A stretch of 64,000 bases of DNA from Actinomycetota bacterium (GCA_009699465.1 WLOE01000001.1:309-64308); one strand, 5' to 3'. Shown: positions 3,370 to 42,063, counted from the stretch's first letter. The notes: generated by a model from the letters alone, not told the origin. Translations and numbers: made by a program.

Positions 3370-3395
3370 GTCCGAAGGCTAAGACCCAACGGCTC

Positions 3396-4397
3396 TTAGT
3401 TCCACCATTGTGCCAAATGCACACCAAGTTCGTGCCCTGACTTCCATGCGGCTTCCACCTTCGGTCCACCAGCCCATGAATCCCCTGCGAGACCGATGCG
3501 ATTGCCCTCATCGAAGGAATACAGCTCCGGACGCGCAGATGTTGGCTTGGCGAACGTCCATCGCATTGCCGATGACCACTGCGGATGTTCGGTCAAACCA
3601 AGAATTGGCAACAACGCATCGAGTGCTTGTGGAATGACACCTGCTGGATCAGTGAGGTACTGCGCTGCAAGTTCTGGATGAACGTGAGCGACTACTACCG
3701 GATCTTCATTGCCACGACGGTGACCATCATTGGCAATCCAAGTGAGCACCGGATGCTCATTCACAAAGATGCCATCGAATTTGGGCAAAGTATCTGGCTC
3801 AAACACTGCTGTAACAGCAATTACTGCTTCCCAATCGATTTGATTGAGAATTTCGTGCGTCGATGCGAGCGCAGCATCGATGAATTGCTTTGCCTGAGGA
3901 TCTGGAACACAGACTGCAACAGCACTGAATGGCTCACCATCAACAACAACGTGATCCTCTTGAACAGAAACCGCTGCAACCTGTGTTGACGGTTGAATCA
4001 GCTCAGTAGGAAGTATTTCCGCTTGATGTTCAATGATTGAACGCAAACCATTGGTTGCCGAATAGCGCATCGGGCCAGTTCGAATACCGCTGATGCCTGC
4101 AGGAGTTGCGACATGGAAGGCGTCGGTCCATTCTCGAGCGACACCAGTGTCAATCCATAAATTCACAACCGTTGCAAAATCTGGATCTTGCACGGTGAAG
4201 TAGGAAGCACCAATATCCGTGATGTGCCCATCGAATGCCGTACCAGATTCGCGAATGCGTCGACTTGCCATTCGCCCGCCAACTACGCGACCGCGATCAA
4301 TGACGCGAAACGGGACGTTGTGCTGATGAAGCATCCGAGCGCAGGCAATGCCGCTCATCCCTGCACCAATAACGGCAATCGGTAATTGATTAGTCAC
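3396..4397 (-). CDS. NAD(P)/FAD-dependent oxidoreductase (renalase/amine-oxidase-like, COG3380 type)
   Basis: N-terminal Rossmann motif IAVIGAGMSGIACARML, then a GGR element (VVGGRM). 333 aa. Confidence 0.65.
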   Translation of the reverse strand: MTNQLPIAVIGAGMSGIACARMLHQHNVPFRVIDRGRVVGGRMASRRIRESGTAFDGHITDIGASYFTVQDPDFATVVNLWIDTGVAREWTDAFHVATPAGISGIRTGPMRYSATNGLRSIIEHQAEILPTELIQPSTQVAAVSVQEDHVVVDGEPFSAVAVCVPDPQAKQFIDAALASTHEILNQIDWEAVIAVTAVFEPDTLPKFDGIFVNEHPVLTWIANDGHRRGNEDPVVVAHVHPELAAQYLTDPAGVIPQALDALLPILGLTEHPQWSSAMRWTFAKPTSARPELYSFDEGNRIGLAGDSWAGGPKVEAAWKSGHELGVHLAQWWN

Positions 4398-19159: not shown

Positions 19160-21545
19160 ACTGCTTGCCCGGGACGCCGAGACGTCCATCACCAGCATCC
19201 AGCAGCATCGCCATCCACCATGAGACCTCGGTGGCCGTCAACGTAGGGAGCCGCACCATGCAGACCGGGATCTTGAACGACGTCCGGATTGTCGACCTTT
19301 CGGACGGCATCGCCGGCCCGACGGCCACCATGGTGCTCGCCGAGGCAGGCGCCGACGTCGTACTCGTGGAGCCACCAGGTGGAGTGACCACCCGTTCCCT
19401 GCCGGGCTTCAAGACCTGGAACCGCAGCAAGCAATCTGTCGTGCTGGACGTGCATGAGTCCGCTGGCCGCGAGCGCCTCGACGCGTTGCTGGCCGGCGCG
19501 GACGTGCTAGTCCACTCGCTCTCGCCGACCAAGGCACGCGAGCTCGGGCTCGATGATGCCTCGCTGGCCGCCGCCCATCCGCATCTCATCGCCTGCTCGG
19601 TGCTCGCGTGGCCGGCGAACCATCCCGATGCGGAGCTGCCGGTCGACGACCTGCTCGCGCTCGCGCGCATGGGCGTGCTCGACGAGCAGCAGGGCCTGCG
19701 TGAGGGCCCCATCTACGTGCGCTTCCCACTGGGCAGCTGGGGCGCGGTCTGGCTTGCCGCCATGGGGATCATGGCCCGGCTCATCGTCCGTGGCCGCACA
19801 GGCTCGGCCGGCCCGATACATACAAGCCTGGTGCAAGGCGCCCTGATCCCGATGATGATGCACTGGTCGCGGGCGGAAACGCCGTCCGACGCCCTTCGGA
19901 TCGGTATGCCCAAGGGGAACATGCAGGCCTCGCTCTTCGAATGCTCCGACGGGCGCTGGGTGCACGCGATGCAGCCGGCCCCGTGGGGCACCCCGCTCAT
20001 GGACGAGGCGCTGGGCGAGCTGGGACCGGAAGCCGTCGAGGAGGGTGCGACCCTCGCCGCGACTGGCCTCTGGGGGGACATGACTCTGGTACGCAAGGCG
20101 TTCCTGCGCCGGACGGCGCAGGCCTGGCTCGACAACGCCTGGGCCAACGACCGACCGGCGCAGGGCGCGTTCGAGGTGGGCGCGATCCTCGGCGACGAGC
20201 AGGCACGCATCAACCGCTACGTCATCGAACTGGATGACCCGGAGGCCGGGCGCATCACGGTGCCCGGGCTGCCGCTGACCTTGGACCCTCCGACGCAGGT
20301 GCGCTGGCCCGCGCCGGCGCTCGGCCAGCACCAGGATGCGGCAGGAGCCGACTGGGCTCCGAGGGAGGCTCCAGTGGCCGAGGCCACGAGCCAGCGCTAC
20401 CCGCTGGCCGGCTTGAAAGTGCTGGACTTCGGCAACTACCTGGCCGGCCCGCTCGGCCCGATGCTGCTGGCCGACCTCGGCGCCGATGTCATCAAGGTCG
20501 AGGCCACCACTGGCGACCCGATGCGCTGGGGGGATTGGCCCTTCGCCGGCTGCCAGCGCGGCAAGCGCACCATCGCGGTTGATCTCAAGTCACCTGACTC
20601 GCGCCCCGTGCTCGAATCGCTTGTGCGATGGGCCGACGTCGTCCACCACAACCTGCGCATGCCCGCCGCTCGCCGCCTGGGCCTGGACTCCGCGTCGCTG
20701 CGGAAGATCAACCCCGATCTCGTCTTCTGCCACACGAGCTCCTACGGCCCGAAGGGGCCGCGCGCCGATTGGCCTGGCTATGACCAGCTGTTCCAGTCGT
20801 CCTGCGGCTGGGAGGTTGCCGGCGCCGGCGAGGGCAACCGGCCGATGTGGCACCGCTTCGGCTTCATGGACCACCAGTGCGCGATGTCGTCGGTGGTCTC
20901 CACACTGCTCGCGGTCTACGAGCGCGACCGCACCGGCCGCGCTATCGATGTGGCCGGCTCGCTGCTCGGACCCGGCGTGCTCACCACGAGCGAGACCTAC
21001 CTGCAGGCCGACGGCACGCTCGCACCGATGGCCCGGCTCGACCACGACCAGATGGTCACCACGCCCGGTGCCCGCCTGCTCATTTGCTCGGATGCGTGGA
21101 TCGCTGTGGCCGCGCATCGCGACGACCAGGTTGCGCGCCTGTGCGAGGTGCTCGGCGTGGTCGCCCCGGACTCGCTTCCGAAGGCCGCCGCCGACCGCGC
21201 ATCCGGCGAACTACTCCACGCGCTCGCAGCAGCAGACGTACCGGCCGAGCTCGTGCGGCTCGACAACAAGAACTCCTTCTTCGACGACCCGGCCAACCAG
21301 GAGATCGGGTTGGTTGTCTCCTACCAGCACGGCGCCTGGGGCCGTCTCGAGCAGCCGGGCGCAATGTGGGACTTCGGCGACCTCGACACGAGGTTCGACT
21401 ATGCGCCGCCGCTGCTCGGCGAGCACACCGTCGAAGTGCTGCGCGAGATCGGCTTCGACGAGGCCGGCATCGATGGGCTGCTCGCCGCGCAGGTGGTCAA
21501 GACCGCCTAGCGACAAGGCAGAGTTATCGCCGGCGGAGGCGACCC
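19160..21545. other. Compositional island: ~2.4-kb high-GC block, putative horizontally acquired single-gene insertion
   Basis: Hand-counted 60-nt lines inside give 43/60 and 41/60 G+C. Lines outside give 32/60, 25/60 and 26/60. Long shadow ORFs pile up in many frames on both strands only here. Boundaries are approximate, to within about 30 nt. Confidence 0.7.
19258..21510 (+). CDS. Family III (CaiB/BaiF-type) CoA-transferase, tandem two-module fusion
   Basis: 750 aa from ATG at 19258, with AGGGAG Shine-Dalgarno 7-12 nt upstream. The track ORF starts at 19165. Module 1 begins VRIVDLSDGIAGPTATMVLAEAGADVV. Module 2 restarts near residue 385 with LKVLDFGNYLAGPLGPMLLADLGADVIKVE. Confidence 0.8.
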   Translation: MQTGILNDVRIVDLSDGIAGPTATMVLAEAGADVVLVEPPGGVTTRSLPGFKTWNRSKQSVVLDVHESAGRERLDALLAGADVLVHSLSPTKARELGLDDASLAAAHPHLIACSVLAWPANHPDAELPVDDLLALARMGVLDEQQGLREGPIYVRFPLGSWGAVWLAAMGIMARLIVRGRTGSAGPIHTSLVQGALIPMMMHWSRAETPSDALRIGMPKGNMQASLFECSDGRWVHAMQPAPWGTPLMDEALGELGPEAVEEGATLAATGLWGDMTLVRKAFLRRTAQAWLDNAWANDRPAQGAFEVGAILGDEQARINRYVIELDDPEAGRITVPGLPLTLDPPTQVRWPAPALGQHQDAAGADWAPREAPVAEATSQRYPLAGLKVLDFGNYLAGPLGPMLLADLGADVIKVEATTGDPMRWGDWPFAGCQRGKRTIAVDLKSPDSRPVLESLVRWADVVHHNLRMPAARRLGLDSASLRKINPDLVFCHTSSYGPKGPRADWPGYDQLFQSSCGWEVAGAGEGNRPMWHRFGFMDHQCAMSSVVSTLLAVYERDRTGRAIDVAGSLLGPGVLTTSETYLQADGTLAPMARLDHDQMVTTPGARLLICSDAWIAVAAHRDDQVARLCEVLGVVAPDSLPKAAADRASGELLHALAAADVPAELVRLDNKNSFFDDPANQEIGLVVSYQHGAWGRLEQPGAMWDFGDLDTRFDYAPPLLGEHTVEVLREIGFDEAGIDGLLAAQVVKTA

Positions 21546-22607: not shown

Positions 22608-22678
22608 GCGGGCGTAGTTCAGTGGTAGAACACCAGCTTCCCAAGCTGGATATGCGGGTTCGATTCCCGTCGCCCGCT
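22608..22678 (+). tRNA. tRNA-Gly (anticodon CCC)
   Basis: Folded by hand. Acceptor GCGGGCG/CGCCCGC, D-arm GTTC-AGTGGTA-GAAC, anticodon arm CCAGC-TTCCCAA-GCTGG (CCC at positions 34-36), T-arm GCGGG-TTCGATT-CCCGT, discriminator T. 3' CCA is not encoded. Confidence 0.9.
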
Positions 22679-22706
22679 CCGCTAGTGAGTCATTGTCTGG
22701 AATTGA

Positions 22707-23581: not shown

Positions 23582-25618
23582 TCATTGTTGAAGTACTCGC
23601 GTGAATAGTGGGGAAAGCCCCTGAGCCGCTCCAACAGAGATATGGCCATCATCTCGATACAGATATGTATCACCGATTTGAGTCATGCAGATGCCTTCTG
23701 GACAGAAATACTCGCGTAAATCCAGCACGGTGGCACCCGTAGCGACACCAACTGCATTCGTTGCATCGCGAGCCGCGCGTTGGTTGCTGTCAGCAATGGC
23801 CTGCGGCATCTGCGATCCGAGGTTTTCTCCGCTGGATATCTGCGGCACCGAGAACTGCCGCGGATCTGACGCGTACGGGCTCACGAAATACGGAACATCT
23901 TGAACTAACACAACACGGTGTCCGGAGGCCTGAAGTTGCTCCACAGTTGAAAGCAATCCAGCCTGCAGAATTGCACGCTTCGCTGCAAGGTCACTAGTGA
24001 GCGAATCAGGAGTTACGCCAGCACTGAACACTTTCGAGTTCCAATAGACACTTGAGGAAGAAAGAATCACGGTTCCAGGTGGCTGTTGCTTAAGCCATGT
24101 CAAAGTTTTCTGTACGAATTTTCTGCACGGTGATTTCGGTGCTGCAGTTGAATACAAGTACACGTCGTAGAACGGACAAGCATTTGCCGTGGCAATAGTG
24201 AGTGGGTCGTTGAGTTCTTGAGTCGCTGCAATCACTGCTTCGCTTAAATGATCTGCATGCGAGTCACCGATGAGATACACATGCGCGCCAGTTCCATCGC
24301 CATTCCATACGCACTTGGTTGCTTTGCGATCGCTCGGCGCTATTGAGTTATTGCATCCAGCTGCATTTCCCGCATGCATTGGTTGCACTGTCGCGACAAA
24401 TTGCTGAACGCGTGTATTCCAAAAACCATTATCCGCTGCGCTCCACAGGCCTAGAGCCAACACAATCGGCGGAATCATCGTGGCGGCAATAATGCCCGTC
24501 ATTTTTCTTTTACTTACGTTGCGTAGATTTCGAATTGGCTGTTCAAGCCACTGATAGGAAATCAATGACGGAACAAGTGAAGCCGCTGCAGCAATGATTG
24601 CAATCCCGGGCACTGTTGGCCACAGGATCAGTGCGAACACAATGAACGGCCAATGCCATAGGTAAAACGAATACGAGATATTGCCGATATGAACGAAAGG
24701 CGCTCGCCCAAGAAAATGACTCACTGCGTTGGCTTCTGCATATCCTGCAACGAGCAAACACATCGTGCTCACAACCGGAAGAATGGTGATCGGTCCTGGC
24801 CAGATCGTTTGGTCGTTAACTAAATAAAGTGAAGCGACCAAACCAAGGATGCCAACGGCACCAAGAATTAACCCGAGGCCTTTTGTGATGGCAGGTTCAA
24901 TTTTGAAAGCCAACAGTGCAAGGATCGCACCGGCTGCGAATTCCCATGCTCGACTCGTAGGGCCATAGAAGCCACTGAGCCAGCTCGGTAACAGCGGAAT
25001 CGTGTGGCCTGCAGCTTCCACCATTGCGATTGCAAACGACAGTGCACCGATGACGCCCACGAAGATAAATGGCATGAAACGAGTCGCTGGTTTTCTTGCC
25101 AACTTCCACCCAAGGAATAGGACAAGCGGGAAAATCAGATAAAACTGTTCTTCCACCGACAATGACCACGTATTCAATAACGGGTTTGCGGCGGCGGGTG
25201 CATCAAAGTAGCCGCCAGTTGTTTTCGCAATCACGATGTTGGCGCTGAGTAGTAGTGCGCCAATGCCTGTTTGGGCCGCGATTTGTTGATCGCCCATGGG
25301 TGAAGCGATGAATGCGGACAGCACCACAACACCAACCACCAGCAGAGCAAGGGCAGGGGTTAGCCGTCGAAACCTTCTGGCATAGAAAGTGGAAAAGCGC
25401 AGGCTTTGGGTTTTGGCCCACTCTCGACCGAGCATGGCAGTGATAACAAAACCAGAAATAACGAAGAAAATGTCTACGCCTATGAATCCACCCGGGACAG
25501 GTAAACCGGCGTGGAAAGCAACCACGGTTCCCACCGCAATAGCTCTGAGGCCCTGAATATCGTTGCGCCTGTTTTCGGTAAAAGGCAGTGAGGAGATGCC
25601 AGATTCAGGGTGCGACAT
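23582..25618 (-). CDS. Acyltransferase-3 membrane domain fused to SGNH domain (OafA/YrhL-type O-acyltransferase)
   Basis: 678 aa. N-terminal RNDIQGLRAIAVGTVVAFHAG...DIFFVISGFVIT (Acyl_transf_3), about 10 TM segments. C-terminal extracytoplasmic domain with the YLIGDSHADHL SGNH block. Confidence 0.85.
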   Translation of the reverse strand: MSHPESGISSLPFTENRRNDIQGLRAIAVGTVVAFHAGLPVPGGFIGVDIFFVISGFVITAMLGREWAKTQSLRFSTFYARRFRRLTPALALLVVGVVVLSAFIASPMGDQQIAAQTGIGALLLSANIVIAKTTGGYFDAPAAANPLLNTWSLSVEEQFYLIFPLVLFLGWKLARKPATRFMPFIFVGVIGALSFAIAMVEAAGHTIPLLPSWLSGFYGPTSRAWEFAAGAILALLAFKIEPAITKGLGLILGAVGILGLVASLYLVNDQTIWPGPITILPVVSTMCLLVAGYAEANAVSHFLGRAPFVHIGNISYSFYLWHWPFIVFALILWPTVPGIAIIAAAASLVPSLISYQWLEQPIRNLRNVSKRKMTGIIAATMIPPIVLALGLWSAADNGFWNTRVQQFVATVQPMHAGNAAGCNNSIAPSDRKATKCVWNGDGTGAHVYLIGDSHADHLSEAVIAATQELNDPLTIATANACPFYDVYLYSTAAPKSPCRKFVQKTLTWLKQQPPGTVILSSSSVYWNSKVFSAGVTPDSLTSDLAAKRAILQAGLLSTVEQLQASGHRVVLVQDVPYFVSPYASDPRQFSVPQISSGENLGSQMPQAIADSNQRAARDATNAVGVATGATVLDLREYFCPEGICMTQIGDTYLYRDDGHISVGAAQGLSPLFTRVLQQ

Positions 25619-25787
25619 CCGACCTCCTCAACCTGCACATCTGAACGAGTCGGCAGTCTATGGGGCCAGATACCAGTGATTTACGAGAGCAACACCACGT
25701 TGATGCGGTCCTAAGGTCCTTGTTTTCTGACGTATTCTTGAGAATCTGCTTGATAGCAGTCCTGATATCTTCCCCTGGAGTGAGACC

Positions 25788-27473
25788 TTGACCGAAGTGC
25801 ACGGCCGAAAGCGGATTGAGCTGACAACCGCCACGTTGGTCACTATCGGTATCGTCATAGCGGTATTCGCGTTGATTTTGGTGGGTACCACCAAGGCCGC
25901 TCGCGCTGGTGAATCTGGGCCAGATACGGCTCCAAGTGCTGAAACCAGTGGCAACACCCCGATGAATCTGGAAGTTCAAGCCGCCGAAGGTTCCCTCAGT
26001 GACATAAAGAATGTCGTGATGATTCTGGCCGACGACCTTGATTGGGCTGCCTTTAATCAAGTGCCACGGTTGGCTGCGCTGAAGAAAGAAGGCACCACCC
26101 TTTCAAACTTCGTCGTGACTAATTCGCTTTGCTGCCCATCGAGAACATCGTTCATGCGAAGTCAATATGTGCATAACCACCGGGTTCTCACAAATGTCAA
26201 AGCGACAGGTGGTGGCTGGGAAACTTTTGCGGCACGTGGATTAGAAAAAGATTGCTTGCCTACTTGGCTCAATAAAGCAGGAGTAAACACCTCACTCATC
26301 GGTAAATACCTCAACGGTTTTCCGAACGGCACTCCGGCAATCAATTACATTCCACCAGGGTACGACTACTTCGTTACGTCAACTTCTAAGAATCAGGCGT
26401 ATCAAGGTTTTGATTACACACTCAACGAGAATGGCACGCTGAAGGATTATGGGCGTAAGTCATCAGATTTCATGAATGCAGTACTCGTGAAGAATGCAAC
26501 TGCATACTTAAAGTCAGTCAAGGCTCCATTCTTTATGGAATTTGCTTCGTACAACCCGCACACCCCAGCACCTTTTGAAGCTAAATACGCAAAGACCCAC
26601 ACCACCGACGTCATTCCTCGCACGCCGGCGTTCAACACCATCGGAACAAATGAATTGGGTTGGCTAGCAGGTCGCGAGACACTCACAGCGAAACGTATCT
26701 CCAACCTTGATCGCTTGTGGCAGAAGCGTTTACGGTCAACTGAATCTATCGCGGATACATACGAAGCACTGCAAGCGCAACTCAAGGCAACAGGTCACTC
26801 TGATGACACGCTGATCATTCTCACGTCAGACAACGGTTATCACGCGGGCGTTCATCGTCTTGCCACTGGCAAGCAGACTGCCTACAAGGAAGACGCGGTA
26901 GTGCCGGCTATTTTTATCGGACCAGGAATCGCTAAGGGTGCTGTGATCTCTCAAATCACTTCCATGGTCGATCTTGGGCCAACGATCAGTTCAATCTTCG
27001 GAGCAAAAACGCCTTCATACATTGATGGAAGAAATCTTGCGCCGCTCCTTCGTGGTGAAACACAGACACCGTGGCGCACTGCGGCTCTGACTGAAAACCT
27101 TGCCCGAACTACACCAGGTGACCCTGATTACTCCCCAGACGCAGTGCCACCGTTCCATGCACTTCGTAGCGAGAACTGGCTTTATGTTGAATACTTCAAT
27201 GGAGATGTCGAGTTGTATGACCTCAAGACTGACCCGTTCGAAATGAACAATGTTCAAGCATCAACAAACCCCGCGATAGTTGCCCAACTTCATGCGCAAC
27301 TACAGGCACTTCAAAATTGCAAAGGTGCAACTTGCCGTCTGGCTGATGCAATGCCAAATGGCACTTCGATTTTGCCATTACCTCAGATCACCGCGGTTCC
27401 GTCAACATCACCTTCTGCATCGGTGAGTTCAACACCACTTCCTAGCGCTTCTGCAACAACACCTGTTCAATAA
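25788..27473 (+). CDS. Membrane-anchored Cys-type sulfatase (formylglycine-dependent family)
   Basis: VVMILADDLDW metal-binding start and the SLCCPSRTSFM (C-x-P-x-R) signature. Single N-terminal TM. C-terminal Ser/Pro/Thr-rich tail. TTG start with GGAG 8 nt upstream. Confidence 0.8.
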   Translation: MTEVHGRKRIELTTATLVTIGIVIAVFALILVGTTKAARAGESGPDTAPSAETSGNTPMNLEVQAAEGSLSDIKNVVMILADDLDWAAFNQVPRLAALKKEGTTLSNFVVTNSLCCPSRTSFMRSQYVHNHRVLTNVKATGGGWETFAARGLEKDCLPTWLNKAGVNTSLIGKYLNGFPNGTPAINYIPPGYDYFVTSTSKNQAYQGFDYTLNENGTLKDYGRKSSDFMNAVLVKNATAYLKSVKAPFFMEFASYNPHTPAPFEAKYAKTHTTDVIPRTPAFNTIGTNELGWLAGRETLTAKRISNLDRLWQKRLRSTESIADTYEALQAQLKATGHSDDTLIILTSDNGYHAGVHRLATGKQTAYKEDAVVPAIFIGPGIAKGAVISQITSMVDLGPTISSIFGAKTPSYIDGRNLAPLLRGETQTPWRTAALTENLARTTPGDPDYSPDAVPPFHALRSENWLYVEYFNGDVELYDLKTDPFEMNNVQASTNPAIVAQLHAQLQALQNCKGATCRLADAMPNGTSILPLPQITAVPSTSPSASVSSTPLPSASATTPVQ

Positions 27474-29688
27474 CCTGCTGTGCGGCAGTGCCTCGATCGA
27501 ATTCGCAGAATTTAGCCCGGAAGGCTTCGAGTCGCGCGTTACTTTCGGTTGATTTGAAGCTTTCCGTTGCAAAGATTTCATTGAGCTGTGCCTGATTCGT
27601 TGCCAGGGCACCTGGAGGCGTGGCCAACAAATCAAAGTACGTTCCTCGAGCATCGCAATACGCTTCCCAATCATCAGCGAAAATAACGATGGGACGATTC
27701 AAGACCGCATAATCAAACATCACTGACGAGTAGTCGGTAATTAGAATATCGGCTGCGAGATAACAATCAATGATCGATGGAAAAGTAGACCCATCGATTA
27801 CACGTCCTGAAGCAACAAGCTCGTTGATCTTTGGGCCCAAAGTGGTGGTGTGGTGGGCGCGCAGAATGAATACATATGACTCATCAACCTTACTGATTAA
27901 TTCATCAAAGTTGATTCGCAAAGAACTATCGCCTTCAACATCTCGATAAGTCGGCGCGTACAGCACAACTTTCTGATGCGCTTGAACACCAATACGCGTT
28001 CTAGCTGCTGCCATTTCATTCGGTCCAGAGTTCACTAATACGTCATTGCGTGGGTATCCAACTTCGAGCCACGTGTATTGGCATGGGTAGGCATGGCCCC
28101 ACATTTCTGTTGAATACGCGTTAGAACTAATGGCGTAATCCCAGTTATCGCTTCGCCGGAGTAGATCAGAAAATTCTTGACGGCTACGGGATGGGTCAAG
28201 TGCAACGACTTGATCCCCCTTCCGAGGAGCCACGCGCTTAGGGTCAATTGCGGAACTCGCCACAGCATTATTCATGACGTCGAGACCGCAAAATTTTAAT
28301 GGTGTGCCATGCATTGTTTGAATGACAACTTGCTCAGGCCGCTTTTTGAATGCACCCGGAAAGTTCACGTTGTTAACGAAGTACTGAGCGCGCGCGAACA
28401 CCGCCCATTGCCTCAAAGTATTTGGCGCCACGTGCTTTACGCCCGGAGGTAGCTTGCCTGTCTGGTCTTTCTCCATAATCCATACAGCTGTGAGGTGTGG
28501 CGCAAAGGTTGGCAAGGCTTCATAAATTGCCCGTGGATTACAGCCGTAGCCGCTTCCCCAGTATTCAGAAAACACCACAACATTTTTCTTGATTGGCAAC
28601 ATCCGGAAAAAGCCGTACCAAAGTCGACCAACTGCCCGAACCTTGCGAACTGTTCGACGCACAGGCCAGTAAATCTTGCCAATAAAGCGTCGAGTGGGAA
28701 CCCTGCGTTCATCTACCCAGCTATAGAGCTTGAAAGTGGTGTACGAGTTATTGCGGAAAAACTTTCCTCTGATGTTGCTCGGAAAATTCTTTCTGTGTTC
28801 TTCAGAGTGGTCGGGGTAGTGTTTTCTTGCTGAATCTGATGCCGCAGCAAAAAACCGCTTGCGCTCTGACTTTGCAATGCGTCCGCGATGGCGAATGATC
28901 GTGACGTAATGGTTCACCATGATGTCGTACAGGTGCTTGCGCAGGCCAGGGCTTACTTCAGCACGATTCGCTTCGACAAAAACACGGTCATACTGCTCGA
29001 ATACATCAAAGTGGCGTGGGCTTGGCGTTCCAAGAATGTTGCCCCCTGAACGCCGTTGACGGTAGAGCAACACCACTCGATTTAATGAGACAGCACGCTG
29101 TGCGTTCAAAAGGACTGCATAGGTGTAGGAGATGTCTTCGTACAAGCCAGTTGGGAATTGCACGCCAAGTGCTTGGAGGAAGTCACGTCGGTACGCCTTG
29201 TTGCAAGCGATCGGGAGCAAATTAAACAAGCGCCGATGATCTCTGGGTGTGAACGTCCCAACGGAAAGGTTGGCGAGGAGTTCACCACCCCAGCTCACTG
29301 CCTCTTTGCCATCCCACCACACTCGCGAATAGTTGTAGATCAAAACTTCAGGAAGATCATTACGCCGAAGTTTTTCGGCAATTGCTTTCAAAGAACCCGA
29401 CGCAAAGGTGTCGTCACCGTCAAGGAACAAGATGTACTCACCATGTGCAGCTTCAACACCGATATTTCGCGCATTGCCAAGCCCACCATTTTTTTCTAGA
29501 TGCAGTACTCGAATCCTTGCATCAGACAGAGCGAGCTCATCAGCAATCTCGCCGCTGTGGTCAGGCGTACAGTCGTCAACGATGATGATCTCGAAATCTT
29601 CGAAATCCTGAAGGAGCACCGAATCCACGGCTGCGCGCAGATATGACTGCACGCTGTAAGCCGGCACGATGATGGAGAAGAACGCCAT
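27442..29688 (-). CDS. Bifunctional GT2 glycosyltransferase / TagF-type CDP-glycerol glycerophosphotransferase
   Basis: N-terminus FSIIVPAYSVQSYLRAAVDSVLLQDFEDFEIIIVDDCTPD plus FLDGDD (GT-A/GT2). C-terminus YFVNNVNFPGAFKKRPEQVVIQTMHGTPLK and DYSSVMFDYAVLNRPIVIFADD (Glyphos_transf). ATG at 29688. The track uses an upstream TTG at 29727. Confidence 0.85.
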   Translation of the reverse strand: MAFFSIIVPAYSVQSYLRAAVDSVLLQDFEDFEIIIVDDCTPDHSGEIADELALSDARIRVLHLEKNGGLGNARNIGVEAAHGEYILFLDGDDTFASGSLKAIAEKLRRNDLPEVLIYNYSRVWWDGKEAVSWGGELLANLSVGTFTPRDHRRLFNLLPIACNKAYRRDFLQALGVQFPTGLYEDISYTYAVLLNAQRAVSLNRVVLLYRQRRSGGNILGTPSPRHFDVFEQYDRVFVEANRAEVSPGLRKHLYDIMVNHYVTIIRHRGRIAKSERKRFFAAASDSARKHYPDHSEEHRKNFPSNIRGKFFRNNSYTTFKLYSWVDERRVPTRRFIGKIYWPVRRTVRKVRAVGRLWYGFFRMLPIKKNVVVFSEYWGSGYGCNPRAIYEALPTFAPHLTAVWIMEKDQTGKLPPGVKHVAPNTLRQWAVFARAQYFVNNVNFPGAFKKRPEQVVIQTMHGTPLKFCGLDVMNNAVASSAIDPKRVAPRKGDQVVALDPSRSRQEFSDLLRRSDNWDYAISSNAYSTEMWGHAYPCQYTWLEVGYPRNDVLVNSGPNEMAAARTRIGVQAHQKVVLYAPTYRDVEGDSSLRINFDELISKVDESYVFILRAHHTTTLGPKINELVASGRVIDGSTFPSIIDCYLAADILITDYSSVMFDYAVLNRPIVIFADDWEAYCDARGTYFDLLATPPGALATNQAQLNEIFATESFKSTESNARLEAFRAKFCEFDRGTAAQQVIEQVLLQKR

Positions 29689-29776
29689 GGGTGATGAGAA
29701 TAGGCCTTGTCTCGACGACTCTCCCAAGCACGAAACTTAGAGAGGGGAAAAAGACCCGCTGTAGTAGGGTCAACAG

Positions 29777-30673
29777 GTGAATTCAGGCGGCGTAGATTGC
29801 TTAAATCCCGTTCTTGTAGGTGGAACCGGCCGTAGTGGCTCGACCATCACGGGCCAGCTCCTGGGGCAGCATCCAGATCTCTTTTTAACCGATCCACCTG
29901 AAATTCGCTTCCTTGCCAACGATCACGGTGTGGCAGAAGCGCTCACCATGACTCGCGGTGGCTGGATGACTCGCCGAAAGGCCAAGTCGGAGGCAAAATT
30001 TTGCTTGGAACGCACGAAAACCCTGTGGTTCTGGCGCGCTGCAAAAATCGGACTTCACACCTCGATCACAATCGAAGAAGTTGATGCCCTTGGTCAGGCA
30101 TACCTTGAAGACTTTGGGCGTGATCCTGTAGCCGCTTCACAAGCTTTTACCTACGCCATCATGCGCAAGGTTGCCGCTCCTGCCGAAGGTCGTCGTTGGG
30201 TAGACACCACGCCAGCAAATTCACGTATTTCAGAACAGATCGAACCGATTTACCCACAGTCCCAAGTTATCTCCATGATTCGTGATGGCCGCGACGTTGC
30301 TGCTTCCTTCGTCGCGCAGACATTCGGACCTAATGAAATTTTTGCTTCACTTCGCCAATGGGAGAAACGCTCATTACTGATTCACCAAGCAACATTAGCC
30401 AGCCGCACAGGTCGATGCATCATCGTGGACATGCTCGATCTCGTAGATCGCGATCGAGAAAACACCCTGCAGCGCATATGTGACTTTATTGACGTGCCTG
30501 TCGACCCAGGAATGAAAGCATGGTTTGACGAAACTGTTAATGCAGAGAATGCAAACGTGGGGCGTTGGCGTTCACAGTTTGATGAAGAGACAACCAAGGA
30601 AATTGACCGTGTCTATGGGGAAATGGTCGAACGTCTTCGGGCACAAGGCGTCCAGATCCCACTCGAGTCATAG
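29777..30673 (+). CDS. PAPS-dependent sulfotransferase family protein
   Basis: 298 aa. GGTGRSGSTITGQLL (5'-phosphosulfate-binding loop type) and ISMIRDGRDVAASF (3'-phosphate-binding type). GTG start. Confidence 0.7.
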   Translation: MNSGGVDCLNPVLVGGTGRSGSTITGQLLGQHPDLFLTDPPEIRFLANDHGVAEALTMTRGGWMTRRKAKSEAKFCLERTKTLWFWRAAKIGLHTSITIEEVDALGQAYLEDFGRDPVAASQAFTYAIMRKVAAPAEGRRWVDTTPANSRISEQIEPIYPQSQVISMIRDGRDVAASFVAQTFGPNEIFASLRQWEKRSLLIHQATLASRTGRCIIVDMLDLVDRDRENTLQRICDFIDVPVDPGMKAWFDETVNAENANVGRWRSQFDEETTKEIDRVYGEMVERLRAQGVQIPLES

Positions 30674-30685
30674 ACTGCACCAGTC

Positions 30686-31600
30686 ATGACGAATCCCGTT
30701 CCCACGGAAACGCGCCCAGTGCAGGTTTTCCTCCCACACCGTGCCGGCTTACCTCGTTTGGTGCCGTACTTTTCGAATTTATGGAAACGACGCCACTTCG
30801 CTGTTGAACTTTCGCGCGCATCTATGCGTTCAGCTCACACCAATACTTTCTTTGGTCAGTTCTGGCTAGTCATTGGCCCAGCACTCAATGCCGGGGTGTA
30901 CTTCCTTCTTGTCAGCGTCATTCGAGGTGGAAACGCTGGACCGGATTTCTTCATGCATCTGCTCGCTGGGCTTTTCGCTTTTAACTTCATTCAAGCCGTG
31001 ATGTCCAATGGTGCCACTTCAGTAACAAAAGGTGGCAACCTCGTGTTGAATACAGCATTTCCTCTCTTGCTGCTTCCATTCTCCGCTTTGCGCACTGCTT
31101 TCTTTAGATTTGTTCCTTCACTCATTATTTTGCTTGGGTTCTTCATTTACTTTGATTACTTCGGCGCGCAATCACAAGCATGCGACGCTGTTACTGGCGT
31201 ATGTGAAGAACTCAATACGATTCACTTCACGCCGATCATGTTCATGGCGATCCCTGCTTTACTTCTCATCTTTATCTTTGCTGCAGGTTTATCTGCCCTG
31301 ATGGCTTCTGTGCAAATTTATTTCCGTGACACCACACAGCTGCTCCCATATGCAACACGAATCTGGCTGTACCTATCACCGGTGCTCTACTACGCGGATC
31401 AAATGAAGCCTTGGATGTTGAAACTTGAGATCCTGAATCCGCTTTATCCGCTCCTTGGAATTTGGAGTGAGACTCTCGTGGAAGGCACAATTCCGCCATT
31501 GACTTGGTGGCTTGGTTCAGCTGCGTGGGCCTTTGGCTCACTCTTCATCGGTGTCTTCTTTTTCATGTCTCGCGAACGTGAGTTCGCGGTGCGAATTTAA
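30686..31600 (+). CDS. ABC-2 type polymer-export permease (TagG/Wzm-like)
   Basis: 304 aa, 6 predicted TM. Immediately upstream of the matching ATPase. N-terminal RRHFAVELSRASMRSAHTNTFFGQFWLVIGP is typical of ABC-2 exporters. Confidence 0.8.
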   Translation: MTNPVPTETRPVQVFLPHRAGLPRLVPYFSNLWKRRHFAVELSRASMRSAHTNTFFGQFWLVIGPALNAGVYFLLVSVIRGGNAGPDFFMHLLAGLFAFNFIQAVMSNGATSVTKGGNLVLNTAFPLLLLPFSALRTAFFRFVPSLIILLGFFIYFDYFGAQSQACDAVTGVCEELNTIHFTPIMFMAIPALLLIFIFAAGLSALMASVQIYFRDTTQLLPYATRIWLYLSPVLYYADQMKPWMLKLEILNPLYPLLGIWSETLVEGTIPPLTWWLGSAAWAFGSLFIGVFFFMSREREFAVRI

Positions 31601-31624
31601 TGTGCGGCGAGAAAGGAGACAACA

Positions 31625-32449
31625 ATGATCGATGAAGAAACAGGCGCAACGATTCCTGTTGCCCCAGACCGCCCAATCTCTGACGAAATTGCTATTTCGG
31701 TTCAAGAACTCGATATCACATACCGAACAACGTTCGAGAAGAAGCCAACCCTCAAGCAGGCCATCGTTCGCCTTGGTCGAGGAAAGCGCTCAGTCAAAAC
31801 TGTTGAGGCACTCAAAAATGTTTCATTTGAAGTAAACCGTGGATCAGTTCTGGGCATCGTCGGTCACAACGGAGCCGGCAAAAGCACTTTGATGCGTGCA
31901 ATTGCTGGCATCGTTCCGCCAACCAATGGCCGCATTGAAGTTGTCGGTCGGACCAGCACGCTGCTTTCACTTGGTGTTGGCTTTAACCGTGCACTTACTG
32001 GCCGCGAGAATGTGATTCTTGGCGGCCTTGCTGCTGGCTTAACAAAAGATGAGCTTGAAGATCGCTACGAACGCATCGCAGAATTCGCAGGGCTTGGCGA
32101 CTTCATTGATATGCCAATGAATACCTACTCGTCTGGCATGGGTGCTCGCCTAGCATTCAGTGTCGCTGTGCACCTGGATCCAGACATTCTTTTGATCGAT
32201 GAAGCACTCTCGACGGGTGATGCTGTATTCAAGGAGAAAGCCACAGAGAGAATGCAGGAGCTTGTTGATAACTCCAGCACCATGCTTCTGATCTCTCATG
32301 CACTACGCACAATCATCAATATGAGTACCGAATGCATCTGGCTCGATCACGGCAAACTCATGATGCGCGGCAATCCTGAAGAAGTAGTCGATGCATACAC
32401 CGAGTTTGTACATGTCAAGAAGACCAGTGCAACCATGAACGATATGTAG
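31625..32449 (+). CDS. ABC polymer-export ATP-binding protein (TagH/Wzt-like, short form)
   Basis: Walker A GHNGAGKST, signature YSSGMGARL, Walker B ILLIDEALS. Confidence 0.88.
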   Translation: MIDEETGATIPVAPDRPISDEIAISVQELDITYRTTFEKKPTLKQAIVRLGRGKRSVKTVEALKNVSFEVNRGSVLGIVGHNGAGKSTLMRAIAGIVPPTNGRIEVVGRTSTLLSLGVGFNRALTGRENVILGGLAAGLTKDELEDRYERIAEFAGLGDFIDMPMNTYSSGMGARLAFSVAVHLDPDILLIDEALSTGDAVFKEKATERMQELVDNSSTMLLISHALRTIINMSTECIWLDHGKLMMRGNPEEVVDAYTEFVHVKKTSATMNDM

Positions 32450-39008: not shown

Positions 39009-39767
39009 CTAGCGAGGAAGTTTGCGGAAAACAGATCGTGGCATTGACTTGAGTCCGGCCATGACAAAACGAAGTGGTCCGGGTGCGTACACCGTTTCCT
39101 TGCCCCTGCGCAATGACTTCACGACAATGTCAGCAACCACATTTGCATCTGTTGTCATTGGTGCTTCCGGCATACCTGCACTCATCTTTGTACGCACCAT
39201 TCCTGGGCGAACAACAAGTACGTGTGCTCCTGTGCCATGAAGTGCATCACCGAGGCCTTGAGCGAATGCATCAAGACCCGCCTTTGTGGATCCATAAATG
39301 AAGTTCGATCGGCGCGCACGGTCACCAGCAACACTTGAATACACCACTAAGGAGCCATGGCCTTGCATGCGCAAACGACGAGCCACGTGCAGACCAATGC
39401 TGACTGCTCCCGTGTAGTTGGTCGTTGCAATCTCTACTGCCAACGCGGGGTCGGCTTCGGCAGCTTCCTGATCACCTAGAACACCGAAGGCCAGTAGCAC
39501 AATGTCAATGTCGCCTGCATCAAAAATCTCATTGATGAACACGCTATGTGATTCAGTGCTTCGCGCATCAAAGTCGACGGCGGTGACTCCAGAAATTCCT
39601 TCAGCGGTCAGCGTTGTGACCGCTAAGTCACGTGCAGCAGAAGGCCTGGCGGCGAGGACGATACGACGCAAACGACGGCGCGGCAAGGCATTGACGGTCG
39701 CCAATGCGATTTCGCTCGAACCACCCAGTACGAGTACTGACTGTGGTTCACCAAGTGCGTCGTTCAT
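39009..39767 (-). CDS. dprE2: Decaprenylphospho-2'-keto-ribose reductase (DprE2-type SDR)
   Basis: 252 aa SDR. VLGGSSEIALA cofactor loop, YGSTKAGLD (YxxxK). Sits 24 nt downstream of dprE1. Confidence 0.8.
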   Translation of the reverse strand: MNDALGEPQSVLVLGGSSEIALATVNALPRRRLRRIVLAARPSAARDLAVTTLTAEGISGVTAVDFDARSTESHSVFINEIFDAGDIDIVLLAFGVLGDQEAAEADPALAVEIATTNYTGAVSIGLHVARRLRMQGHGSLVVYSSVAGDRARRSNFIYGSTKAGLDAFAQGLGDALHGTGAHVLVVRPGMVRTKMSAGMPEAPMTTDANVVADIVVKSLRRGKETVYAPGPLRFVMAGLKSMPRSVFRKLPR

Positions 39768-39791
39768 GTGTTCCCCTTTATAAGTGACGGG

Positions 39792-41156
39792 CTAAATAGA
39801 AAGTCTGCGAGCAAGATCAGATGTGAACGTACCTTGTGGATCAAGTTCATCGCGCACCTTTTGCCATTCACTCAATCGTGGATATGTCTGAGCAAACATC
39901 TGTGGTGACTGACGCGAATCTTTTGCCAGGTACAAACGTCCGCCAGCTGCTGCAATGAGTTCATCTAATTCATCGAGCGCGGCAGCTAAGCCGTCAATGC
40001 CTGCAGGTACATCTGCTGCCAGAGTCCACCCCGCCTGCGGAAAGGACAATGGCGCAGGATTCGATGCACCAAAACGCTTGAGAACGGTGAGAAAACTTGG
40101 AGCACCAACCTCGCGAAGTCGATCAAGAGCTGTGCGAATGAGGTGACCTGCACTGTCAGGAACGACGAATTGATACTGCAAGAACCCACGCGGACCGTAA
40201 ATTCGATTCCAATCTGCCACGCCATCAAGCGGATGGAAAAAGGCACCTATGGATTGCATTTCATCAGTGCGAGATTTCGGAGCTTTTCGAAACCACGCTT
40301 CGTTGAATGCGCGAATCGTGAGTTTGTTGAGCAACCCACCGGGAATGATCGATGGTGCAGTTGCCAGAGCCTTCGGGTCGAAGAGCAACGCTTCAGATCG
40401 CTGTCTAGCGCTGAGCTGTTCGAATGGTGCATGGTCACCACTCGTTATCACACCTCTGCCACTTGGTGAAACAGTGTCAATCCATGCGACTGTGTAGCGA
40501 TATTTATCGTCGCCAGCAATCATCTTCGACATGACTTCGTCGAGGTCGTTCACTCGCTGAGTGTCCACGCTTATCAAGGAACTAGTAATCGGGATGACAT
40601 CAAAGGTGGCTTGCGTGATCGCTCCCGTGAGACCCATGCCGCCAACTGTCGCCCAGAACTTTTCTCGTGTGTCACCTGCGGGCGTGAGCTCATGCACTCC
40701 ACCGGCACCATCGACCAGCGTCAGAGACTTCACGTGTGATCCGAAGGTGCCGTCTACATGGTGATTCTTGCCATGCACGTCGGCACCAATTGCGCCACCA
40801 ACGGTGATCATTCGAGTGCCTGGTGTGACTGGAACAAAAGCACCTTGGGGAACAGTCGCACGCATGATCGCATCCAAACTCGCCCCCGCTCCTGCGGTGA
40901 TGGTTCCGGATGTTGCGTCAAAAGCCACCGAGTCCATCGACTGCAGATTCAGCACGGTTGCTCCGCCGCTTTGCGCCGCATCACCATATGAACGACCAAG
41001 ACCACGAGCTAAGACTCCACGCGGGCCCGCGCCCCGAATCACTTCTTGGACTTGCTCAACAGACGAACAATCGACCACTCGTGCGGAACTTGGACATGTG
41101 CGTCCCCATCCAGTGAGGAGTTTTTCTCCTTGCGTCAATGAAAGTGATTGGGTCAT
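39792..41156 (-). CDS. dprE1: Decaprenylphosphoryl-beta-D-ribose 2'-oxidase (DprE1-type FAD oxidase)
   Basis: LLTGWGRT...ARGLGRSYGDAAQSGG FAD-binding PCMH domain. Start set at MTQSLSL (ATG at 41156), 1 nt after the upstream stop. The track ORF extends to 41282 into the upstream gene. Confidence 0.85.
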   Translation of the reverse strand: MTQSLSLTQGEKLLTGWGRTCPSSARVVDCSSVEQVQEVIRGAGPRGVLARGLGRSYGDAAQSGGATVLNLQSMDSVAFDATSGTITAGAGASLDAIMRATVPQGAFVPVTPGTRMITVGGAIGADVHGKNHHVDGTFGSHVKSLTLVDGAGGVHELTPAGDTREKFWATVGGMGLTGAITQATFDVIPITSSLISVDTQRVNDLDEVMSKMIAGDDKYRYTVAWIDTVSPSGRGVITSGDHAPFEQLSARQRSEALLFDPKALATAPSIIPGGLLNKLTIRAFNEAWFRKAPKSRTDEMQSIGAFFHPLDGVADWNRIYGPRGFLQYQFVVPDSAGHLIRTALDRLREVGAPSFLTVLKRFGASNPAPLSFPQAGWTLAADVPAGIDGLAAALDELDELIAAAGGRLYLAKDSRQSPQMFAQTYPRLSEWQKVRDELDPQGTFTSDLARRLSI

Positions 41157-41157
41157 G

Positions 41158-42063
41158 TCACACTCCCAATGCTCCAAGGCCAAACAGCACAATCCAAGCA
41201 AAACCAAGGACGAGTAAGACCTTGTCACGCAGCACTGCATCTTCTGGTGCTTCAGCTTTACCTTGATCAATGCCAACCGCATATCGCAGGATTGCTAATA
41301 CAAACGGCAGTACTGACCATTGCGCCCAAGGCAACGTTGACGGAGCTGTACCCACTTCAAAAGCCCAAAGGCAGTACGCAGTAATTGTTACTGCTGCGGC
41401 TAATCCCCATACAAATCGCAAGTAACTCAAGGTATATCCCTCAAGACTCTTGCGCTTAATTTCTGGTTGATCACCTGCAACTGCTTCCAACCATGACATT
41501 TCGCAGTAGCGCTTGCCTGCTGCCATGAACAAAGAACCGAATCCTGCAACGATCAAGAACCATTGCGAGATTGGTAGATCCGAGGCAACGCCACCGGCAA
41601 CCGCGCGAAGTAAAAAGCCCATAGATAGCAAAGCAAGTTCGATCACCGGCTCGTGCTTAAGCCCAAGGGAGTACGAAAGTGTGAAAACGAAATAGATACC
41701 AATGACACCGGCGAGCTCTGGACGAATCGCGAATGCGAGAACGCCTGAAGACGCAACCAACACGATCGCCATAGCCATCGCTACAACAGGGGGCAGTTCA
41801 CCGGCTGGGATTGGCCTGAAGCGCTTAGTCGGATGCTGTTGATCGGTTTTTATGTCACGGAGATCGTTAATGAGGTACGTCGCGCTCGATACTAGGCAAA
41901 AAGCAATGAAAGCTCCGACAGTTGGCCAAAACACGTTGACTTCAAAAACCGAACCCGCCGCAAGAGGTGCAGCAAAGACCAAAATGTTTTTCAGCCATTG
42001 ACGTGGGCGCATGGCAACGAGGGCTGCGACAACCATCGGTCGTTGTTGTGTATCGGTAATCAT
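41158..42063 (-). CDS. Decaprenyl-phosphate 5-phosphoribosyltransferase (UbiA superfamily, Rv3806c-like)
   Basis: 301 aa, about 8 TM. RPRQWLKNILVFAAPLAAG and NDLRDIKTDQQHPTKRFRPIPAG (NDxxDxxxD) motifs. Confidence 0.85.
   Translation of the reverse strand: MITDTQQRPMVVAALVAMRPRQWLKNILVFAAPLAAGSVFEVNVFWPTVGAFIAFCLVSSATYLINDLRDIKTDQQHPTKRFRPIPAGELPPVVAMAMAIVLVASSGVLAFAIRPELAGVIGIYFVFTLSYSLGLKHEPVIELALLSMGFLLRAVAGGVASDLPISQWFLIVAGFGSLFMAAGKRYCEMSWLEAVAGDQPEIKRKSLEGYTLSYLRFVWGLAAAVTITAYCLWAFEVGTAPSTLPWAQWSVLPFVLAILRYAVGIDQGKAEAPEDAVLRDKVLLVLGFAWIVLFGLGALGV

Follow-up and report, generated by a model that had tools for sequence, protein, structure and literature searches.

A sulfatase, a TagF-type polymerase and a sulfotransferase co-inherited in a predicted teichoic-acid-type wall polymer locus of uncultured freshwater actinobacteria

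What could a sulfotransferase and a sulfatase be doing among genes for a teichoic-acid-type polymer? Such polymers are tailored with D-alanine, sugars or acyl groups. The question was raised by six open reading frames (ORFs) that lie on alternating strands at positions 23582-32449 of a 64,000-nt stretch of DNA (hereafter the window) from an Actinomycetota bacterium (GCA_009699465.1, WLOE01000001.1:309-64308). An initial annotation had assigned these ORFs to a TagF/TarF-type polymerase, a TagG/TagH-type exporter, an O-acyltransferase, a sulfotransferase using 3'-phosphoadenosine 5'-phosphosulfate (PAPS) and a membrane-anchored sulfatase. It had predicted from them a sulfated wall polymer with enzymatic removal of the sulfate. 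The gene coordinates matched and the named domains and motifs were recovered, every Pfam match lying above its gathering score. The locus is predicted to be a compact cluster for a teichoic-acid-type, phosphodiester-linked wall glycopolymer with ABC export in an uncultured freshwater actinobacterium; the closest metagenome-assembled genomes (MAGs) were labelled Actinomycetota or Candidatus Nanopelagicales by their submitters. The reading preferred here is that the polymer is sulfated inside the cell and that the sulfate is removed or edited outside, to which a probability of roughly 55% is assigned.

The evidence that carries this reading is the inheritance of three of the genes. One genome per species was taken, and 80 loci in these genomes encoded a relative of the sulfotransferase. 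All of the loci come from MAGs or assemblies of uncultured organisms. Their titles named mostly Actinomycetota, Actinomycetes or Nanopelagicales and a few other taxa, and many came from lake samples. The loci were searched with the window proteins and all of their ORFs were clustered. The sulfatase (+), TagF (-) and sulfotransferase (+) genes stood in this fixed order in every TagF-bearing locus (31/31, window included), members being absent solely at contig ends. The sulfatase lay beside TagF in 28 of the 31, and the other three loci end early. The trio persisted down to identities of 51% for the sulfotransferase, 47% for the sulfatase and 56% for TagF.

A neighbour-joining tree divided the sulfotransferases into two clades, one of which was monophyletic for all trio-linked genes. 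The sulfatase tree was congruent with it and left out three sulfatases (46-51% identity) that occur in other contexts. On the TagF side, the freshwater clade ended at about 53% identity; the orthologues in locus L090 (53%) and in Streptomyces (42-45%) belong to glycopolymer clusters of the usual kind, in which both sulfur enzymes are missing. Judged by gene order and phylogeny, the trio is a co-inherited module specific to one clade and was added to an actinobacterial TagF cluster of conventional type. Co-conservation of the sulfur enzymes with the polymer genes, which had been seen as decisive for the sulfated-polymer prediction, was found for the polymerase and failed for the exporter and the acyltransferase.

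In distant members of the clade the clusters were fuller, adding a second TagF-like gene, GT4 and GT2 glycosyltransferases, a CDP-alcohol phosphatidyltransferase, a nucleotidyltransferase and an ABC-2 exporter; those of L081 and L083 contained a cytidylyltransferase-like gene, a second TagF and a GT4 gene. These surroundings strengthen the reading of the module as one for teichoic-type polymer synthesis. A conserved protein of about 375 aa, marked by the loop HIGVHKTGTT near its N terminus, was also always encoded directly upstream of the sulfatase in more distant clusters (L083, 4713-5846, - strand; L013, L017, L019, L020, L022, L024, L027 and L029). It had no Pfam, NCBIfam or Protein Data Bank (PDB) match, and its candidacy as a second sulfotransferase was not supported, a profile comparison with the sulfotransferase family returning a probability of 1%.

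The polymerase of the window was aligned from residue 4 to 739 with residues 4-710 of Staphylococcus epidermidis TagF (3l7i; E = 1.4e-67). The HGTPLK, LRxHH and TDYSSVMFDY motifs, which include the catalytic His motifs, were conserved between the two, and a hydropathy scan revealed no hydrophobic segment. The best NCBIfam match was TarF, with 205.6 bits against a cutoff of 550, and TarL scored 55.9 against 1000. The protein had initially been described as a fusion of a GT2 domain with a TagF/TarF-type enzyme. Both domains are there; the fusion is nothing special, since the end-to-end alignment with the S. epidermidis enzyme identifies the GT2 plus Glyphos_transf layout as the ordinary full-length TagF architecture. 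The reading frame stays open as far as a TTG at 29727; the start taken here, the ATG at 29688, agrees with the gene calls in relatives and preserves a conserved 88-nt spacer. The TagF and sulfatase genes are convergent and overlap by 32 nt at their 3' ends.

The spacer separates TagF from the divergently oriented sulfotransferase gene, and its length was 86-88 nt in the two nearest groups (L001-L012; alignment of nine loci). One box, GAGAATAGG, adjoins the TagF start, and a second, CGCTGTAGTAGGGTC, lies about 12 nt ahead of the sulfotransferase start; both were conserved in relatives. The spacer is presumed, from its sequence, to hold back-to-back promoters with very short leaders or leaderless transcripts.

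The GGTGRSGST and IRDGRD motifs annotated in the sulfotransferase were present and invariant in 22 homologues. The invariant segments, in 22 sequences down to 47% identity, were G15-T23 (GGTGRSGST), the 5'-phosphosulfate loop; R169-S177 (RDGRDVAAS), the 3'-phosphate motif; and GRWR..F (G262-R265/F268). Conservation of the PAPS-binding residues was borne out on alignment, the motifs corresponding to the PAP-binding segments of tyrosylprotein sulfotransferases (TPST). An AlphaFold model was obtained with a predicted local distance difference test (pLDDT) score of 91.6. The top 17 Foldseek matches in the PDB were all sulfotransferases (TM score 0.47-0.60), namely olefin-synthase (OLS)/CurM domains, TPST1/2, Stf9, Stf1 and NDST, of which Stf9 and Stf1 are mycobacterial. 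A PAPS-type sulfotransferase fold and cofactor site are well supported by the alignment and the model. No transmembrane segment was detected in the hydropathy scan, hence the enzyme is described as cytoplasmic. Its best NCBIfam match, NoeE, was weak and far below the family cutoff. The family comprised 687 homologues; the best 120 of the 687 all came from metagenomes or MAGs and, where named, from Actinomycetota or Nanopelagicales.

For the sulfatase, the annotated CCPSR motif was found at C115-C116-P117-S118-R119 and was invariant in 15 homologues. The same 15 sequences shared D82, D83, C115, P117, R119, K173, H258, D348, N349 and K362. By analogy with characterised S1 sulfatases, we take D82, D83, D348 and N349 to be metal ligands and K173, H258, K362 and R119 to form the catalytic set. 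A single hydrophobic segment at residues 9-40 in the hydropathy scan corresponds to an N-terminal anchor or signal. The protein is predicted to be an exported Cys-type (formylglycine) S1 sulfatase. Its C-terminal tail (residues ~522-561, encoded by 27340-27473), which follows the invariant C511 and C516, is rich in Ser, Thr and Pro and predicted to be disordered, and may be a wall-spanning or glycosylated linker.

Sequence matches of the sulfatase in the PDB were a mucin-desulfating sulfatase, an ulvan sulfatase, phosphonate monoester hydrolases and a GlcNAc-6-sulfatase. With the sulfatase model, which was of moderate quality (pLDDT 69), Foldseek ranks 1-7 (E = 1e-25 to 8e-24) were occupied by S1_11 hexose-6-O-sulfatases (5g2v, 7snj/7sno, 7lha/7lj2 and 7p24); identity to the structural matches was 20-22%. 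Several database sources name homologues of the protein N-acetylglucosamine-6-sulfatase. From these sequence and model comparisons, the enzyme tentatively looks most like the hexose-6-O-sulfatases.

The same comparisons bear on a different assignment, in which the protein would be a formylglycine-dependent teichoicase, similar to phosphodiesterases or phosphonate monoester hydrolases, that trims the polymer or recycles it, for example under phosphate limitation, and the sulfotransferase would be independent of it. Freshwater plankton are often phosphorus-limited, and a phosphodiester polymer is the presumed product of the adjoining gene. Phosphonate monoester hydrolases (4upk, 2w8s, 2vqr and 4uph) were among the best sequence and fold matches, and the best NCBIfam model was the phosphoric/sulfuric ester hydrolase PehA, far below its cutoff. 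Against this, the S1_11 carbohydrate 6-O-sulfatases fill at least six of the first seven places in the fold ranking, the phosphonate monoester hydrolases (4uph, 4upk; E = 8e-22 to 3e-21) entering only from rank 17. A relative of the sulfatase (L087) lies directly beside a sulfate permease, and the constant sulfotransferase neighbour of TagF would be left unexplained. A teichoicase is regarded as quite improbable.

The exporter consists of a TagG/Wzm-like permease with six hydrophobic segments and a TagH/Wzt-like ATPase of 274 aa with no hydrophobic segment and no C-terminal carbohydrate-binding extension. The best NCBIfam model for the permease was the mycobacterial galactan export permease Wzm, below cutoff. 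The ATPase scored 217 bits against galactan Wzt (cutoff 400) and 181 against TagH (cutoff 320), with NodI-type ATPases also among its matches. The sulfotransferase had been noted as co-oriented with the exporter genes and 12 nt upstream of them, and this is correct for the window, where its stop at 30673 is followed by the permease start at 30686. Among the 80 loci searched, the window-type permease and ATPase were confined to the closest group (L001-L012). Other groups had a very divergent ABC-2 pair convergent to the sulfotransferase, co-orientation being restricted to the window's own group, and no exporter was found in the L008-L011 neighbourhoods. In L009 (10914-14902, - strand), of the 63%-identity group, the sulfotransferase was followed by four ORFs (267, 239, 394 and 417 aa) that are not an exporter. 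They had no close counterpart in other loci; the first had weak matches (~25%) to short-chain dehydrogenase/reductase (SDR) genes in loci of the sister sulfotransferase clade described below.

The acyltransferase has about ten hydrophobic segments across residues 37-395, fused to an extracytoplasmic SGNH domain. Its best NCBIfam match, the mycobacterial SucT, was far below cutoff, and this AT3-SGNH gene was limited to the window's group, L008-L011, L019 and L029. The exporter and the acyltransferase are accessory, outside the conserved core.

Tight spacing of the sulfotransferase between polymerase and exporter raises the alternative that sulfate is a terminal cap or export tag, with the sulfotransferase ending the chain or marking it for the ABC transporter and the sulfatase decapping it after export. 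Capping at the non-reducing end is an established means of chain-length control in WbdD-type ABC-dependent O-antigen systems. A single sulfotransferase gene is tied to the polymerase gene by the fixed 86-88-nt divergent spacer, its distance to the exporter genes in the window is small, and an extracellular enzyme able to take the group off is always present. However, the 274-aa ATPase has no equivalent of the C-terminal carbohydrate-binding domain that reads caps in O-antigen systems, and the exporter does not accompany the trio from locus to locus. A capping role is considered very unlikely.

The reading of a sulfated polymer edited outside the cell can be set out as a pathway. The full-length TagF-type enzyme would extend the chain at the cytoplasmic face on a lipid-linked primer made elsewhere in the genome, and its GT2 domain may contribute a sugar. 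The soluble PAPS-dependent sulfotransferase would then sulfate the polymer, during or after its growth, or a sugar substituent on it, ahead of export by the TagG/TagH-like ABC-2 transporter. Outside the membrane, the AT3-SGNH enzyme would O-acylate the polymer and the exported formylglycine sulfatase, perhaps of hexose-6-O-sulfatase type, would remove or edit the sulfate. The computed part of this scheme comprises the domain assignments, the motifs for catalysis and cofactor binding, the folds and topology as predicted, and the co-inheritance of the trio. From them we infer that the TagF product is the acceptor of the sulfotransferase and that the ester so formed is also the substrate of the sulfatase.

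The sulfated position may be a sugar 6-OH, which is plausible and offered as a lead by analogy, since the sulfatase resembles hexose-6-O-sulfatases and NodH, like the window sulfotransferase a member of Pfam family PF13469, makes GlcNAc-6-O-sulfate (PMC11625862). A bolder version would be a sulfate code on a Gram-positive wall polymer, written inside and erased outside by a dedicated 6-O-sulfatase, with PAPS made mainly for the cell surface, in abundant uncultured freshwater actinobacteria thought to be without assimilatory sulfate reduction. That version is tentative and, taken as a whole, rather doubtful.

Several observations weigh against the preferred reading, and they concern both sulfur enzymes as well as the supply of precursors. 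The closest solved structures to the sulfotransferase act on peptides or acyl chains and not on glycans. The sulfotransferase also has a sister clade, 43-53% identical and with intact PAPS motifs (L026, L030-L080 and L082), in a different synteny: murI-rph-rdgB, sometimes znuABC, a Cpn10-like gene and the sulfotransferase (for example L082, 9618-12619; L061, 9609-13276). The Cpn10-like gene stops where the sulfotransferase gene begins, and on the 3' side of the latter lie either an FAD amine oxidase and an SDR gene, or a cysM-like PALP gene and ThiS. Such contexts are unrelated to wall polymers, so the family is not intrinsically polymer-specific.

Both facts favour a sulfotransferase acting on some other acceptor, whether a lipid, a small molecule or a protein tyrosine, with its place next to TagF reflecting co-regulation only: the nearest solved structures are tyrosylprotein, polyketide acyl-carrier-protein and mycobacterial sulfotransferases, and the sister clade keeps company with Cpn10-like, FAD-oxidase or cysM/ThiS-like genes in housekeeping synteny. 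Such an acceptor would have to be reconciled with the divergent adjacency to TagF, which is invariant across the whole clade, with the joint absence of sulfotransferase and sulfatase from TagF orthologues outside the clade, and with a cluster in which no gene for an alternative acceptor was identified by Pfam. This alternative is highly improbable. The sister-clade sulfotransferase was found in at least one MAG labelled acI (L040). A TagH-like ATPase near the distant sulfotransferases, considered for a time as an exporter link, was dropped, as it is ZnuC of the zinc ABC importer.

The sulfatase, too, has relatives in other contexts, at 46-51% identity (L086, L087 and L088). In L086 (8721-11656) and L087 (8790-13331), the genes for sulfatase paralogues (46-47% identical) overlap an MFS transporter gene at its stop, among cystathionine-type, PALP and methionine-sulfoxide-reductase genes; the paralogue of L087 also adjoins a SulP sulfate permease. 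These units look like organosulfate scavenging systems. The third, in L088, stands in an unrelated context.

By extension, the polymer of the window could be sulfated while its sulfatase is a nutrient-scavenging exoenzyme that releases sulfate or desulfated sugars from sulfate esters in the surroundings, for instance sulfated glycans of algae, merely travelling with the cluster. The coupling of relatives to an MFS gene among Cys/Met genes (L086 and L087), in one case beside SulP, speaks for this, and the nearest solved structures belong to glycan 6-O-sulfatases with a catabolic function in gut and marine Bacteroidota. The cluster-linked sulfatases nevertheless form a clade of their own whose tree matches that of the sulfotransferase down to ~47% identity, and their position and convergent overlap with TagF were kept in every locus. 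Fixed position and congruent trees are hard to explain unless sulfatase and cluster have a function in common. In addition, no transporter for a released product was identified in the cluster by Pfam. Scavenging is considered unlikely.

Further points stand against the preferred reading. None of the six proteins reached an NCBIfam equivalog cutoff, and the conservation of the trio does not extend to the exporter. In the Pfam assignments of ORFs across the 64-kb window there was no cysD/cysN/sat, cysC or cysQ, no FGE-sulfatase or radical-SAM maturase (anSME) domain, and no tagD/TarIJ, tagO, tagA, tagB or LCP ligase; where sequence past the end of the window was looked up, fatty-acid metabolism genes were the only ones seen. 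A search for APS kinase with an Escherichia coli CysC query gave no match in the window or in 1.37 Mb of related loci, which is a weak negative. Sulfated-capsule clusters carry extra cysNDC copies for PAPS, a proposed hallmark (PMC11641403). Compared with the Vibrio sp. KMM 8419 cluster described there, the window has the sulfotransferase, whereas cysN, cysD and cysC are absent from both cluster and window. Cultured Nanopelagicales have been reported without complete assimilatory sulfate reduction (PMC12817590, PMC5301498).

With an E. coli CysD query against the window and these loci, a lone cysD-like gene (52-54% identical) was found only in two sister-clade loci, L057 and L069, which says little about the window's genome. 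That of L057 (1795-2766, + strand) matched Pfam PAPS_reduct and had no recognisable cysN or cysC beside it; that of L069 lies at ~2767-3648, and both are a few kb upstream of sister-clade sulfotransferases. We argue that PAPS is probably available in the host, since the PAPS motifs are invariant across hundreds of homologues. Formylglycine maturation would presumably also be available in this genome.

The feature coordinates are collected in Table 1. Four apparent transcription units are formed by the acyltransferase, the sulfatase, TagF, and the sulfotransferase with the exporter.

Table 1. Genes and divergent spacers of the cluster, with positions in the window and the matches on which each assignment is based
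Feature	Position	Strand	Evidence
Acyltransferase gene	23582-25618	-	Pfam Acyl_transf_3, 90 bits (cutoff 31), 1.7e-25; SGNH, 132 bits (cutoff 27), 5.2e-38
Divergent spacer, acyltransferase/sulfatase, 169 nt	25619-25787	no strand	Sequence only; presumed promoter region
Sulfatase gene	25788-27473	+	Pfam Sulfatase, 141.1 bits (cutoff 25), 6.2e-41; SGSH_C, 56 bits, 8.1e-15
TagF-type polymerase gene	27442-29688	-	Pfam Glyphos_transf, 350 bits (cutoff 22.1), 1.9e-104; Glycos_transf_2, 121 bits, 7e-35
Divergent spacer, TagF/sulfotransferase, 88 nt	29689-29776	no strand	Conserved length and two boxes
Sulfotransferase gene	29777-30673	+	Pfam Sulfotransfer_3, 74.1 bits (cutoff 27), 2.5e-20
ABC-2 permease gene	30686-31600	+	Pfam ABC2_membrane, 34.7 bits (cutoff 26.9), 1.7e-08
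ABC ATPase gene	31625-32449	+	Pfam ABC_tran, 83 bits, 3.3e-23

The 169-nt spacer matched no family in an Rfam search. The cluster had been described initially as an AT-richer, strain-variable surface-glycan island, a claim that proved weak. Its G+C content was 0.504 against 0.527 in the rest of the window, a gap of 2.3 points that places it at the low edge among stretches of 8.9 kb, and the codon-position G+C of its genes resembles that of neighbouring genes. Both flanks are of housekeeping type (dnaK-grpE-dnaJ-clpB, dcd, ArfB, tRNA-Gly and DUF2237 on the left; MFS, AI-2E, MFS and aldo-keto reductase genes on the right), and no mobility genes or repeats were seen among the Pfam matches of the window. 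DUF2237 on one side and the MFS/AI-2E/MFS/aldo-keto reductase genes on the other recurred in the loci of relatives. Given these syntenic flanks, the small G+C gap and the ordinary codon-position G+C, the island was rejected; at this scale the cluster does not look like one.

Other features of the window were recorded as well. The tRNA-Gly(CCC) gene (22608-22680, + strand), 0.9 kb to the left of the cluster, was the sole RNA gene detected in the window with Rfam, and a glyoxalase-family gene between it and the cluster had no counterpart in the loci of relatives. The true compositional outlier is the gene at 19165-21510 (+ strand), which encodes 781 aa with a pair of CoA-transferase family III domains; its G+C content is 0.70, and 0.87 at third positions, in a background of 0.53. 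It is not an assembly chimera, as a 94%-identical relative (L085) carries it and is equally GC-rich (0.68). The G+C content of the related loci ranged from 0.51 to 0.67, and the lineage of the window lay at the lower limit. Three adjacent genes 7 kb from the cluster (39009-42063, - strand), for a short-chain dehydrogenase, an FAD_binding_4/ALO oxidase and a UbiA prenyltransferase, resemble the mycobacterial DprE2/DprE1/Rv3806c route to decaprenyl-phosphoryl-arabinose, and the first two were also present at the edge of L085. They hint at an arabinan-type envelope component encoded near the cluster.

If the sulfated-polymer reading is true, Gram-positive envelopes would gain a new kind of anionic decoration and, possibly, a step of editing outside the cell. 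Surface charge, recognition by phages or grazers, or the economy of phosphorus could be tuned through such a polymer. The carriers are related to the bacterioplankton that is most abundant in fresh water, in which interactions with phages and grazers are believed to be driven by surface structures (PMC12817590). The question is also sharpened of whether these lineages have kept sulfate activation only for PAPS, and the three-gene module provides a simple genomic marker for candidate organisms and enzymes.

Among known systems, the poly(glycerol phosphate) wall teichoic acids of S. epidermidis and Bacillus subtilis 168 share with the window the full-length polymerase architecture and its motifs and an ABC-2 permease and ATPase of the TagG/TagH-Wzm/Wzt type. 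In both, the polymer is expected to be made in the cytoplasm and then exported by the ABC transporter. In contrast to those systems, the window is without tagD, tagO, tagA, tagB and an LCP ligase, and its proteins stay below the NCBIfam equivalog cutoffs. Whereas classical wall teichoic acids are tailored with D-alanine or sugars, the tailoring genes here are a sulfotransferase, a sulfatase and an AT3-SGNH acyltransferase. The nearest cultured homologues of the polymerase are the two-domain GT2/CDP-glycerol glycerophosphotransferases of Streptomyces (743-748 aa, 42-45% identity); their clusters contain further TagF-like and GT4 enzymes and nucleotide-sugar genes, with no sulfotransferase or sulfatase.

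Sulfation ahead of ABC-2 export has precedents elsewhere. In rhizobial Nod factors (NodH/NoeE, NodPQ and NodIJ) the common logic is cytoplasmic sulfation followed by ABC-2 export; the substrate there is a lipo-chitooligosaccharide signal, no sulfatase is paired with the pathway, and the similarity of the window proteins is far below the family cutoffs. Animal Sulf1 and Sulf2 erase heparan sulfate 6-O-sulfate extracellularly after PAPS-dependent sulfation in the Golgi. The likeness to these enzymes is conceptual only, a mark written inside and erased outside, as organisms and polymers are unrelated; what is shared is the S1 sulfatase fold. Cytoplasmic PAPS-type sulfotransferases with O-acyl decoration are found in the KpsMT-export capsule clusters of Vibrio sp. 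KMM 8419, Cobetia marina KMM 1449 and Mesorhizobium loti (KpsS) (PMC11641403, PMC11766843, PMC11625862), the account of the Vibrio cluster making no mention of a sulfatase (PMC11641403). Those capsules are polysaccharides of diderm hosts, whereas the window would direct, to judge by its genes, a TagF-type phosphodiester polymer.

Even a putative sulfated exopolysaccharide has been treated as unusual in an actinomycete, in a 2026 paper on Actinoplanes (PMC13390465). The view that no characterised system of this kind is known in Actinomycetota, mycobacterial sulfolipids apart, still stands, as a literature search found neither a sulfated teichoic-type polymer nor a trio of this composition. Compared with what has been described, the TagF/TagGH backbone and cytoplasmic sulfation before ABC-2 export are known elements, and the new one, whose chemistry is predicted, is the pairing of a sulfotransferase and a sulfatase with TagF.

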